A stretch of 64,000 nucleotides of DNA, taken from contig JANPGK010000005.1 in the NCBI GenBank assembly GCA_031423895.1, positions 58,683 to 122,682 of the forward strand, given 5' to 3'. Position 1 is the first letter of the stretch. Each line of letters starts with the position of its first letter. The notes beneath the pieces are model-generated. The model searched no databases and was not told the origin of the DNA. It saw only the letters and a list, made by a program, of their open reading frames with translations. Position numbers and translations under genes: made by a program. Positions 1,124-50,662 of this stretch are shown one piece after another. The DNA comes from Hyphomicrobiales bacterium. GTDB lineage: Bacteria; Pseudomonadota; Alphaproteobacteria; Rhizobiales; JANPGK01.

Positions 1124-1596
1124 TCACACCAATTCTTCACCCTTAGCGCCAAACCATGATTTGAGTGACGGCATGCTGGCGTATAAACCACCAATAACTG
1201 CAAATGGCATGAGAATTTTGAGGACAATATTGTTTTTCTCGCAGAGGGTTTTGAAGTTGTTTATGAAAATACCCCAATCACCCGCTGTTAAAATATTATC
1301 CTTTTGTTGCGACACAATTGCACCTGCTGTTTGCTCAATACCTTTTCCTATTGGAGTAACATTAATTAATTTTCCTAGAAAAGTGCCATTTAAAAAATTT
1401 CTCTGTTGTTTTGCTATTAATTCTACTGGCTCCAATTGATCCATCGCGCTTAACTTCAAATTATGCAGCTGTTTAGATAATTTATAATTTCATGAGCAGT
1501 AACAGCTCCATCACCCTTTGTTATAACAAACTCAATAGCTTTATCTGGATTTGGCGTAACACCATTAGCGCGATCCATTTTCAAAAAATTATACAT
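1124..1596 (-). pseudogene. Tail-anchored orphan protein split by an apparent 1-nt frameshift near 1488-1490
   Basis: AAGGA RBS plus ATG at 1596 gives MYNFLKMDRANG...AHE. Adding one A to GAAA joins it to NYKLSKQLHNLKLSAMDQ...ILMPFAVIGGLYASMPSL (ORF 1124..1459). Confidence 0.55.
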
Positions 1597-1699
1597 ATTG
1601 TTTATTCCTTTTAACTATTTTTAGTTATAATATAATACAAATTTACTTCCCTACGCAAGTCCTTTGTTCTAGTGCTTTAGTATAATGGGAATGTTAGGC

Positions 1700-1773
1700 T
1701 GTCACCCCGTGTGCTGTGCAGCACGCAGTGATGCGCTGCTAACACGGGGGCTTACGACGATTGAGCTCAATCG
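1700..1773. repeat. TGTC-tagged hairpin (TGTCACCCCGTG...ACACGGGG) followed by a 16-bp perfect palindrome
   Basis: CCCCGTGT...ACACGGGG stem at 1705-1749; CGATTGAGCTCAATCG at 1758-1773. Confidence 0.55.
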
Positions 1774-1893
1774 GCTTAATATCCCGCATCTGCGTAGCAC
1801 AATTGCGCTTCGCTGATTATGCAACGCGTGCGGGACGACACCCCCATTAACATCTCTCCACCTGCCCATTTTTTATACAAACTACTCATTTTC

Positions 1894-1910
1894 TGCCCAA
1901 AATATAGGCA
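1894..1910. promoter_or_regulatory. Putative NtrC binding site
   Basis: TGCC-N9-GGCA about 75 bp upstream of a sigma54 promoter for glnBA. Confidence 0.55.
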
Positions 1911-1982
1911 ATTCATCCCATTCATCCACAGCATTTGCCCTGCACACACCCAAAAACGCGGCAAATGAAACAAAAACGCATT

Positions 1983-1998
1983 TGGCACGGGTTTTGCT
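1983..1998 (+). promoter_or_regulatory. Sigma54 (-24/-12) promoter of glnB-glnA
   Basis: TGGCAC-GGGTT-TTGCT matches TGGCAC-N5-TTGC. Confidence 0.85.
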
Positions 1999-2072
1999 CT
2001 TAATATATCGTTTACAAACTTAAACCCAGCGCGTAGCGTTTAGCCACTCGCCACAAACATAAAGTGTGTCCC

Positions 2073-2411
2073 ATGAAAAAAATCGAAGCGATTATCAAAC
2101 CCTTCAAACTCGACGATGTAAAAGATGCGTTGAACGCGCTTGGCATTCAAGGCCTGACCGTAACCGAAGCCAAAGGCTTTGGACGTCAAAAGGGGCACAC
2201 CGAGCTCTATCGTGGCGCAGAGTATGTGGTTGATTTCCTACCAAAATTAAAACTCGAAATTATTGTGAACGACGACATGCTTGCGGGCGCCATTGAAGCG
2301 ATCCAAAAAGCTGCGCATACAGGCCGAATTGGCGATGGCAAAATATTTGTCTTGCCAGTTGAGAATGTTTTGCGTATCCGCACTGGTGAAACTGGTCCAG
2401 AAGCTGTATAA
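2073..2411 (+). CDS. glnB: Nitrogen regulatory protein P-II
   Basis: [18 protein letters not shown]-loop [15 protein letters not shown]. Confidence 0.97.
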
Positions 2412-2461
2412 GCTTCTGAACCAACCACCTTCCACCCCACCCTACCCACAAAGGTTTTAAA

Positions 2462-3871
2462 ATGAGTGCTGCAAAATCAATTATGAAACTTATGAAAGAG
2501 AAAGATGTTAAATACGTCGATTTTCGTTTCACCGATTATAAAGGCAAATGGCAACATGTAACATTCGATGTTACAATGGTTGACGAAGATTTGTTCAATG
2601 AAGGCATTATGTTTGACGGCTCTTCAATTGCTGGCTGGAAGGCCATCAATGAATCCGACATGATGTTGAAGCCGATTGCCGAAACAGCACAAATCGACCC
2701 ATTCTTCGCACAAACCACGCTGTCAGTGGTGTGCGATATTCTCGACCCAATCTCTGAAACGCCCTATAATCGTGATCCGCGCTCAATATGCCAAGCGGCT
2801 GAAGCCTATATGCGCAAGCTCGGCGTGGCCGACACTGCCTATTTCGGCCCAGAGGCTGAATTCTTTATTTTTGACGATGTGCGTTTCAGCGCAACCCCAT
2901 ACGATATCAGCGTAAAACTTGATGATTTCGAATTGCCGACCAACAACAATCGCAAGATTGAAGGTGGTAACAATGGTCACCACATCCCTGTAAAAGGCGG
3001 CTACTTCCCAGTGCCGCCTTTGGATACCTGCCAAGATCTGCGCGGTGAAATGCTCGCAGCTGTTGCGGCAATGGGTGTGACTGTTGAAAAACATCACCAC
3101 GAAGTGGCCTCGGCTCAGCACGAATTGGGTATTAAATTCTCCCAAATCACCACCTGTGCCGACCAAATGCAAATTTACAAATATTGTGTACACAATGTTG
3201 CAAATGCATATGGCAAAACCGCAACCTTCATGCCGAAACCAGTCTATGGCGACAATGGCTCGGGCATGCATGTGCATCAATCCTTGTGGAAAGATGGCAA
3301 GCCAGTATTTGCTGGCAATGAATATGCTGGCCTGTCAGAAACCTGCCTCTACTACATCGGCGGTATTTTGAAACATGCCAAAGCCCTCAACGCCTTCACC
3401 AACCCATCCACAAACTCTTACAAGCGTTTGGTGCCAGGGTTTGAAGCGCCAGTGTTGTTGGCCTATTCTGCACGCAACCGTTCGGCCTCTTGCCGCATTC
3501 CGTTCAGCAAATCGCCAAAAGCAAAACGTGTTGAAATCCGCTTCCCAGACCCAACCGCCAACCCATACTTGGCATTCTCGGCCATGTTGATGGCTGGTTT
3601 GGATGGCATCAAAAACAAAATACACCCAGGCGCAGCCCGCGATGAAGATTTGTATGAATTGCCAGAAGCAAAATTGAAAAAAATCCCAACTGTTGCCGCA
3701 TCACTGCGTGAAGCATTGGATTGCCTGAATAAAGACCGCGCATTCCTCACCGCAGGCGGCGTGTTCTCCGACGACATGATCGACTCCTACATTGAATTGA
3801 AAATGAAGGATGTGATCCGTTTCGAACATACCCCACACCCTGTGGAATTCGAAATGTACTATTCCGTATAA
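2462..3871 (+). CDS. glnA: Glutamine synthetase type I
   Basis: [38 protein letters not shown]. Confidence 0.98.
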
Positions 3872-49799: not shown

Positions 49800-49822
49800 G
49801 ATTCTCTCATGCTACCTACACA

Positions 49823-49852
49823 GCCTCATGGTCGGGCTTGACCCGACCATCC
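49823..49852 (+). repeat. REP-like hairpin next to the GIY-YIG gene 3' end
   Basis: GCCTC-ATGGTCGGG-CTTGA-CCCGACCAT-CC; perfect 9-bp stem. Confidence 0.85.
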
Positions 49853-49855
49853 ACC

Positions 49856-50143
49856 TCACCAATTTAACGTCTCATACAAATCATCCCAACGAGGATTCGT
49901 CGTTTCAATCAGTTCGACTTTCCATTTTCGATACCAACGTTTGATATTTTTCTCACGTTGAATGGCAGTTGTCATCAAATCATGCGATTCAATATACACC
50001 AATCTATGAACACCATATTTTTTGGTAAACCCTTCATAAAACTTCTGTTTATGTAAATAAATGCGGCGCGGTAAATCCCGCGTTACACCTGTGTAAATCG
50101 TGCCATTGCGCTGACTTGCAACGATATAAACCCAAAAGGACAT
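49856..50143 (-). CDS. Small stand-alone GIY-YIG nuclease (YhbQ/SLX1-like)
   Basis: VYIVAS..NGTIYTGVT.DL.RR..H, LVYIE, AIQREKNIKRWYRKWK..LIE..NP.W.DL. Confidence 0.92.
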   Translation of the reverse strand: MSFWVYIVASQRNGTIYTGVTRDLPRRIYLHKQKFYEGFTKKYGVHRLVYIESHDLMTTAIQREKNIKRWYRKWKVELIETTNPRWDDLYETLNW

Positions 50144-50162
50144 ATTTATATTTTAGTATTCT

Positions 50163-50192
50163 GGATCCCAGTGTCAAGCACTGGGATGAGGC
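50163..50192 (-). repeat. REP-like hairpin upstream of the GIY-YIG gene
   Basis: Minus strand reads GCCTC-ATCCCAGTG-CTTGA-CACTGGGAT-CC. Confidence 0.85.
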
Positions 50193-50213
50193 CTCACGTG
50201 TAAGCTTTATACC

Positions 50214-50244
50214 GCCTCATCCTCGGGCGAAGACCCGAGAATCC
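50214..50244 (+). repeat. Second REP-like hairpin upstream of the GIY-YIG gene
   Basis: GCCTCATC-CTCGGG-CGAAGA-CCCGAG-AATCC. Confidence 0.78.
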
Positions 50245-50251
50245 ATCTTAA

Positions 50252-50662
50252 TCACACCACTTCGTTATTCGCCTTCTTATCAAACAACCCCATCGCCCAT
50301 GCACCGCCTGCCATAACGGCAAGGCTGATGAGGGATTTAAAAGATAATGTATTAGCGGCTATAGGCCAATTTGGAATGTGTGTTTTTATTTTCAGACCAA
50401 TTGTCTTGTATTCTGCAAAGATGATTTGCTCAATATCATCTTCTTTATAAGTCCTATCCAGAACCTCATTCCAATTGGCCACATTGCGTGATGTTGGATT
50501 TCTCTTCTGTGCCAAATAGGCTGCCTTATACTCAGAGTCATCTTGTGTAGCATTGGCTAACACTTTCAAAGTCGCAGCCTTAGCATGAAATAACACGATC
50601 AGTTCATCGACAGACTCTTTACCAGTTAATCCAGAACTGGGAATAGGTGTTATATCCTGCAT
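50252..50662 (-). CDS. Orphan tail-anchored protein (about 136 aa)
   Basis: ATG at 50662 after GAGAG; C-terminus FKSLISLAVMAGGAWAMGLFDKK. Confidence 0.68.
   Translation of the reverse strand: MQDITPIPSSGLTGKESVDELIVLFHAKAATLKVLANATQDDSEYKAAYLAQKRNPTSRNVANWNEVLDRTYKEDDIEQIIFAEYKTIGLKIKTHIPNWPIAANTLSFKSLISLAVMAGGAWAMGLFDKKANNEVV

Follow-up and report, generated by a model that had tools for sequence, protein, structure and literature searches.

What are the small, AT-rich genes that lie between the conserved genes of this 64,000-nucleotide stretch of a Hyphomicrobiales bacterium contig (the window, i.e., the whole stretch of DNA analysed, in which positions count from the first letter), and where would their products act? 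An earlier note on this DNA had singled out six of them as a dispersed family of orphan tail-anchored proteins, each with a soluble N-terminus, one hydrophobic helix near the C-terminus, and a short tail, and had taken them for secreted effectors, toxins, or immunity proteins. Our analysis points instead to a genome-wide class of genes that share a C-terminal module, and we give about an even chance to the reading that these genes encode lineage-specific, fast-diverging tail-anchored proteins of the bacterium's own inner membrane. The genome is a metagenome-assembled genome (MAG) from a freshwater-sediment metagenome, comprising 1.90 Mb in 39 contigs, with 49.4% guanine plus cytosine (GC) and a completeness score of 100%.

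Within the window, all six small open reading frames (ORFs) of the earlier note were present, each with a single C-terminal hydrophobic helix and a short polar tail, and a seventh member that it had missed (gene G) lies between the pyruvate dehydrogenase E2 and E1-beta genes (genes A to G; Table 1). In the six, the helix reached 1.4–1.9 on the Kyte-Doolittle scale in a 19-residue window and was followed by N, D, S, or P, then K or R, with a tail of 7–15 residues. The full tail-anchor topology (i.e., one helix near the C-terminus and no other helix or signal peptide) was found in all seven window proteins, in F only from its ATG start; the longest ORF of F, which begins at the GTG at 50734, would have a further hydrophobic stretch at its N-terminus. 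At the starts used, none of the six had an N-terminal hydrophobic segment. The GC fraction of the window genes was 0.36–0.41 vs 0.49 for the genome. Although the ORFs themselves were as described, two of the intervals given for them (1124–1596 and 47056–47390) are not multiples of three and span a frame change. For the first of these, gene A has no Shine-Dalgarno (SD) site at its own starts, its sequence matches an independent Logan contig, and together with the 46-codon ORF upstream it would yield ~157 aa if one frame change were allowed; gene A is thus probably the 3′ part of a frameshifted gene. For the second, an alternative ATG of gene D at 47056, with SD-like AAGG upstream, lies in another frame, and slippage or phase variation could occur at the A8 run near the 5′ end of the gene, though no A8 length variants were seen in assembled contigs, where rare variants drop out. 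Both the frame check of A and the A8 check of D used assembled contigs only, which confirm the consensus and leave rare variants invisible.

How far does this design extend beyond the window? Gene calling by longest ORFs with greedy selection gave 2,027 genes across the assembly, and the label tail-anchored required a single 19-residue segment that scored at least 1.4 in hydropathy and ended no more than 25 residues from the C-terminus. Tail-anchored genes made up 127 of the 805 small genes (80–220 aa), or ~6% of the 2,027 called genes, and among AT-rich small genes (GC <0.42) they numbered 98 of 245, as compared with 13.7 for residue-shuffled sequences (maximum 21) and 23 for reversed sequences. 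The helix fell at 0.8–0.9 of the protein length in 83 of 137 single-helix cases. The same pipeline applied to 943 kb from 80 relatives called 11 of 402 genes tail-anchored, and in a 400-kb portion of a reduced, 33.6%-GC genome from the same order it called 5 of 134; these rates amount to 3–4%, and nearly all of the control matches were obvious false positives. Because the controls lack the pattern, AT-richness or genome reduction is ruled out as its explanation. By these counts, the predicted tail-anchored class comprises ~110–130 genes genome-wide, which is far beyond chance. Hence, the orphan status, AT-richness, variable N-termini, and shared C-terminal design that the earlier note had ascribed to six genes were recovered, while the extent of the class had been underestimated.

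The C-termini of these proteins share position-specific features that were not imposed by the selection filter (module and codon statistics cover 110 genome-wide members, family scans 101, and the TTGACA test below 121). A Lys immediately precedes the helix in 59 of 110 members, and the uncharged stretch that follows has a median of 16.5 residues (typically 15–19), with 20% Ala and 13% Gly despite the AT-rich genes. An aromatic residue falls among the final six helix positions of 85 members, as against 42 for the first six (of 110 in each case), the first residue after the helix is K, N, or R, and the tail has a median of 11 residues (interquartile range 9–13), with Glu/Asp enriched at −2 and −3. 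The C-terminal residue is Ala in 39% of members vs 14% in the background (p = 7e-11), and because all four GCN codons encode this terminal Ala, the constraint acts on the protein and not on the DNA. Searches for a DNA motif at the 3′ ends (attC-like or mobile-element boundary) gave nothing beyond the Ala codon and the stop, and small-xxx-small motifs in the anchors showed no excess over composition. The GC fraction of the anchor DNA was 0.46 vs 0.36 for the N-domain DNA, and in 18 of 22 paralogue pairs the module had diverged less than the N-domain. On average, the 12 residues that precede the helix carried a net charge of +1.8 and the tail one of +0.9, which fits an orientation with the N-terminus in and the C-terminus out (N-in/C-out); we infer both the membrane location and the orientation of the tail-anchored proteins from such sequence features. 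The same arrangement of Lys, helix, aromatic residue, K/N, polar tail, and Ala also ends a 359-aa protein with an Asp/Glu-racemase-like domain (C9:34308-35387, + strand; E = 1.3e-6, just below the Pfam cut-off; the prefix gives the contig), which suggests that the module may be a general anchor for cytoplasm-facing proteins. A shared module attached to freely diverging N-domains suggests a common insertion or recognition requirement.

Judged by codon-position and upstream signals, the tail-anchored ORFs are real protein-coding genes. The GC fraction declines from the first codon position (0.45) through the second (0.36) to the third (0.32), a gene-like signal, and purines occupy the first codon position at 0.64, equal to long genes. 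An SD-like motif precedes 48% of members vs 11% of random positions. TTGACA, the canonical −35 hexamer, often extended to GTTGACA, lies upstream of 31 of 121 tail-anchored genes vs 74 of 1,200 other genes (p = 3e-10), an enrichment of ~4-fold, with a median position of −58 relative to the start codon. In the window, gene B has such a sigma-70-type promoter-like site within the 118-nt gap after the pyruvate dehydrogenase E2 gene, and a promoter and terminator scan of the C-D-E region gave nothing above shuffles. Because the stop of gene E lies 3 nt ahead of the start of thrS, which is essential, transcription of the C-D-E triplet probably reads through into thrS.

Searches for homologues returned very little. 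Neither Pfam nor NCBIfam contained a family for any of the seven window proteins, and scans of the 101 members against Pfam, PHROGs, and PADLOC gave four, two, and one marginal matches, respectively. One of the four Pfam matches is the genome's genuine DUF883/ElaB homologue (DUF883_C, C3:380-628), and the DUF883 profiles (PF05957, PF19029) matched none of the window proteins and one of the 101 members. Gene B retrieved only itself in an exhaustive HMMER search of 1.84 billion representative proteins; gene E likewise retrieved only itself in a word-indexed search of 5.8 billion proteins and had no match in a six-frame search of 40 related genomes; and genes C and F had no match in a six-frame search of 400 genomes from 149 genera of the order. 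In 90% protein clusters, these proteins were singletons.

Are the genes then a family, as the earlier note had it? The B–E link held, and for common descent of the other window genes no significant similarity links emerged. A phmmer search against all ORFs of the genome gave no link from any of the seven window genes, and iterated hidden Markov model (HMM) searches started from each, with anchor-preserving decoys, showed neither growth nor links. The three anchor pairs offered in support of a family were compared by shuffling the pre-helix, helix, and tail segments separately: B–E stood out (z = 4.2, p = 0.001; ranking within the best 0.4% of the 5,995 anchor pairs of the genome), D–F was marginal and fails correction for 21 tests (z = 2.6, p = 0.025), and A–B failed (z = −0.5, p = 0.68). 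With a full-length BLASTP identity of 31% over 118 aa (E = 0.006), B and E appear to be weak paralogues. Genes C, D, and E are adjacent yet showed no detectable paralogy, and gene C forms a singleton cluster. A version of D joined across its frameshift was also compared with E, as both begin MQF, and was not significant (z = 0.44). Where paralogue pairs exist in the genome, they are old, at 25–50% identity. At the level of structure, the AlphaFold2 model of E has four helices plus the anchor helix (mean predicted local distance difference test score, pLDDT, 60), and that of C is all-alpha (pLDDT 63) with the same helix order, i.e., four before the anchor; at the low confidence of these models, the members may or may not share a common fold. 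Foldseek comparison of the E model against the PDB gave generic helical matches only (E > 0.3).

The genes occupy a characteristic genomic setting. The assembly contains 292 AT-rich islets, mostly of one gene and sited at seams between conserved genes, and 89 of them hold a tail-anchored gene; there are also places where two to four such genes follow one another. The yidD–thrS junction, which here holds C, D, and E, is closed in many relatives, with the two genes directly adjacent, and in other relatives it holds unrelated native-GC genes, none of them tail-anchored. The densest islet (C26:18421-21975) has eight consecutive AT-rich genes, four of which are successive tail-anchored genes (C26:19866-21601).

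Such a setting invites the explanation that these are de novo or near-neutral ORFs, which arose from AT-rich spacer DNA and are harmlessly sequestered in the membrane, with no common ancestry and little function. N-domains unrelated in sequence, the lack of homologues, positions at the seams of conserved operons such as yidD–thrS, and the frame problems in A and D would all follow, and yeast offers a precedent, where membrane proteins emerge from T-rich DNA (PMC7005711). However, the tail-anchored genes (GC 0.37, GC3 0.32) are more AT-rich than the intergenic DNA (0.43–0.45), and a foreign or separately maintained gene pool therefore fits better than birth from local spacer DNA; the anchors, moreover, are Ala/Gly-rich and encoded by DNA of higher GC than the rest of the gene, so that they are not a by-product of T-rich sequence. 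Features tied to particular positions, namely a terminal Ala drawn from four codons, acidic residues at −2 and −3, a tail of fixed length, and an aromatic cap, suggest that the members are under one constraint, while the age of the paralogues and the presence of SD sites and consensus −35 boxes likewise speak against recent, functionless ORFs, as does length: an ORF of 100–150 codons in 37%-GC DNA has a chance of only ~1e-4 to 1e-5 each, as calculated from base composition. We thus regard a de novo origin as improbable. A still smaller likelihood attaches to the view that the C-termini are not anchors but oligomerisation helices, degradation signals, or amphipathic surface-binding segments of soluble proteins. 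Several uncharged stretches of only 14–17 residues, a mean anchor hydropathy of 1.78 vs 1.99 for polytopic helices of the same genome, and very low AlphaFold2 confidence over the C-termini would suit it, whereas Lys before the helix, an aromatic residue and K/N/R after it, and a polar tail form the classic interfacial signature of a transmembrane helix, and the hydropathy lies within or above the range in which E. coli tail anchors insert (GRAVY, the grand average of hydropathy, 1.04–1.57 and up; PMC6794478).

If the helices are anchors, the membrane that they enter could still be that of a host or target, with the genes encoding injected or secreted effectors, toxins, or immunity proteins and the conserved tail serving as a secretion signal for a type III secretion system (T3SS) or similar. 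Transmembrane effectors that avoid the signal recognition particle (SRP), like the tail anchors of the eukaryotic outer mitochondrial membrane, typically have short, moderately hydrophobic, basic-flanked helices (PMC12981334, PMC12313075). A set of orphans this large and this divergent, united by a hydrophobic feature alone, recalls chlamydial Inc proteins, a conserved polar C-terminus could act as a signal, and the genome has a second FlhA paralogue. The apparatus that such substrates would need was nevertheless not found in the genome, contrary to the earlier suggestion that the proteins are possibly T3SS substrates: the only secretin is CpaC, within a complete Tad pilus locus; no VirB4, VirD4, or TssC was found in this MAG, scored 100% complete; and neither of the two full-length FlhA (FHIPEP) genes (C4:15453-17444 and C9:36194-38197) lies in an injectisome cluster. 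What had been described as T3SS-like parts at 52.6–53.4 kb corresponds to ORFs H and I, which have no relevant Pfam or NCBIfam match (E ≤ 1) to SctI, SctF, or Hrp pilin and no match to PDB sequences; the same scans for J gave nothing meaningful. The window itself encodes a full tricarboxylic acid cycle, pyruvate dehydrogenase, a cbb3 oxidase, and biosynthetic genes, and the organism is metabolically complete; this and the sediment source argue against the effector model, and a search for an ATP/ADP translocase found nothing, although its control also stayed silent. One member, moreover, carries the racemase domain, which is of a housekeeping type. We consider export into a foreign membrane highly unlikely on these grounds. 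The second FlhA gene (within ORF C9:36128-38320) stands isolated near mnmE, gidA, and parAB-like genes, outside the flagellar clusters, and adjoins the racemase-like gene.

Under the reading that we favour, in which the proteins remain in the bacterium's own inner membrane, many of the tail-anchored genes would be transcribed from their own sigma-70-type promoters, and the AT-rich islets would be DNA of the type bound in other alphaproteobacteria by MucR, a silencer of AT-rich DNA in this class (PMC9410896, PMC10746212); MucR is encoded in this genome. The C-terminal helix would insert post-translationally, after release from the ribosome, with the N-terminus in and the C-terminus out, either unassisted or via SRP, YidC, or DnaK. 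A helix of moderate hydrophobicity at the C-terminus is enough for insertion in E. coli and may need no assistance (PMC6794478), and a search for a Get3/ArsA-type targeting ATPase in our genome gave only ParA-type P-loop matches. The variable helical domain would then be tethered at the cytoplasmic face, with the short tail and its free C-terminal Ala in the periplasm, and selection would keep the module while the N-domains diverge beyond recognition.

As to function, we can offer a guess, possible but rather doubtful, that these are membrane-tethered binding or conflict-type accessory proteins, and that a PDZ-type factor, which binds C-termini in the periplasm, reads the tail; the AT-richness, the rapid divergence, and the islet location are what bring an accessory role in conflict or at the envelope to mind. 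A bolder and unlikely version is that the shared C-terminus is an undescribed bacterial address tag (i.e., Lys flank, short Ala/Gly-rich helix, aromatic cap, K/N/R, ~11-residue polar tail, and Glu/Asp-x-Ala-COOH) read by a dedicated factor, be it a periplasmic C-terminus-binding or PDZ protein, an insertase, or an unrecognised export route. If true, such a tag would serve >100 hyper-diversifying helical proteins, or ~6% of the proteome, and would be a C-terminal counterpart of signal-defined variable repertoires, e.g., chlamydial Inc proteins. Phytoplasma proteins likewise combine conserved signal peptides with variable mature regions.

Several points weigh against this interpretation as a whole or in part. 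The lineage is represented by one MAG without a close relative: the genome is the sole member of its own family among the species representatives compared, and the closest threonyl-tRNA synthetase (ThrRS), among genomes and metagenome contigs, is only 68% identical (top matches in Xanthobacteraceae and Hyphomicrobium). Common descent gains little support from the clustering, in which 82 of 110 members are singletons and the remainder form 12 small groups of old paralogues, or from N-domain alignment scores barely above a reversed-sequence null (21 vs 8 pairs scoring at least 50). Because gene A and possibly gene D carry frame disruptions, some members may be decaying. The ORF caller is crude, the helix calls are a simple hydropathy window, the shortest uncharged stretches noted above are short for spanning a bilayer, and AlphaFold2 confidence is low for both proteins modelled.

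How does this compare with known systems? On the sequence evidence, the topological class is a known one, and what is unusual is its expansion in this one lineage, as seen in one MAG. Bacterial tail-anchored membrane proteins (TAMPs; e.g., E. coli DjlC, Flk, TssL, and ElaB/YqjD/YgaM) likewise have a single C-terminal helix, no signal peptide, a short periplasmic tail, and a predicted N-in/C-out orientation, and their moderate hydrophobicity is enough for post-translational insertion (PMC6794478, PMC3426401); whereas known bacteria have a handful of them from conserved families, the >100 predicted members here are orphans in AT-rich islets, amounting to ~6% of genes, and their tail is longer (~11 residues) and stereotyped, ending in Glu/Asp-x-Ala. 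The transmembrane effectors of T3SS and type IV secretion systems (T4SS) in Legionella, Coxiella, and Salmonella, together with chlamydial Inc proteins, resemble our set in forming large, mutually dissimilar repertoires with a moderate hydrophobic feature, and T4SS effectors include some that are held in host membranes by a tail anchor (PMC12981334, PMC12313075). They differ in that no T3SS injectisome, T4SS, or type VI secretion system (T6SS) was found in this genome and there is no evidence of a host; Inc proteins, in addition, have a bilobed two-helix domain (40–60 residues in all), which was not seen here, where a single uncharged stretch forms one C-terminal helix. The yeast de novo membrane proteins (PMC7005711) are also lineage-restricted and small, with a hydrophobic helix, in AT-rich DNA between conserved genes, but lack the Ala/Gly-rich, higher-GC anchors, the genes below intergenic GC, the position-specific C-termini, and the old paralogues found here. 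A formal likeness also exists to the LPXTG, PEP-CTERM, and GlyGly-CTERM sorting signals, in which a tripartite C-terminus with a helix and terminal charged residues is common to otherwise unrelated proteins; such signals work only together with a Sec signal peptide at the N-terminus, a signature motif ahead of the helix, and basic residues clustered at the end, whereas our proteins have neither signal peptide nor signature motif and end in a ~11-residue polar tail with Ala.

Among bacterial membrane proteins, the tail-anchored ones form a minor class that has drawn little study; work on E. coli counted only a few and itself cautions that the census may fall short (PMC6794478). With >100 anchors that follow one grammar, this genome would offer a ready-made set in which to test how bacterial tail anchors insert and which C-terminal features are relevant to it. 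The expansion also bears on why a streamlined 1.9-Mb genome retains many fast-diverging, AT-rich accessory genes and, more broadly, on the origin and persistence of bacterial orphan genes.

Table 1 Coordinates of the window, its seven tail-anchored genes, and associated features (positions within the window, except for the first row)
Feature	Position	Strand	Length	C-terminal helix	Residues after helix	Remarks
Window	C5:58683-122682					Contig coordinates
Gene A	1124..1459	−	111 aa	ILMPFAVIGGLYASMPSL	KSWFGAKGEELV	TTG start or ATG at 1444; GC 0.375
46-codon ORF upstream of A	1456..1596	−	46 codons			Other frame than A; AAAGGA SD site; start given for A in the earlier note
Gene B	6467..6925	−	152 aa	VASIALLALAFLPSLL	NKSAVGNDAKSA
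Sigma-70-type promoter-like site for B	6977..7005	−				TTGACA (7000-7005), 17 nt, TATTCA
Gene G	8341..8643	−	100 aa	LAAFVSILSGLGVFFSSYII	PKHIISDKS	GC 0.40
Gene C	46661..47047	+	128 aa	VWVGLVVLAGLGMSIV	NGKNSNINSPTS
Gene D	47076..47390	+	104 aa	AIAGLAIFAMVAHWSMQAL	NKDTSNT
A8 homopolymer in 5′ end of D	47106..47113	+				A9 would join ATG 47056 to the D frame
Gene E	47406..47861	+	151 aa	IATAALAFVGLSVL	NRGVKPTDSETA
Gene F	50252..50662	−	136 aa	LISLAVMAGGAWAMGLF	DKKANNEVV	Length from ATG
ORF H	52597-53034	−	125-145 aa			Divergent orphan pair with I; no helix or signal peptide
ORF I	53146-53349	+	67 aa			Divergent orphan pair with H; no helix or signal peptide

Three further features of the window were noted. 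An orphan-like islet gene of different topology lies at 41737–42255 (+), with a 172-aa ORF of GC 0.30 and one hydrophobic segment near the N-terminus. A 123-aa ORF at 58610–58981 (−), of GC 0.36, has three hydrophobic segments and is not tail-anchored; it forms a seam insertion between the succinyl-CoA synthetase beta (58981–60150) and alpha (57726–58610) genes. Just outside gene A, positions 1048–1119 have 30–45 times the local depth in metagenome contigs and overlap a minus-strand ORF reading PLAGEGARRAGEG, and this segment looks like a repeat element that is widespread across the community.

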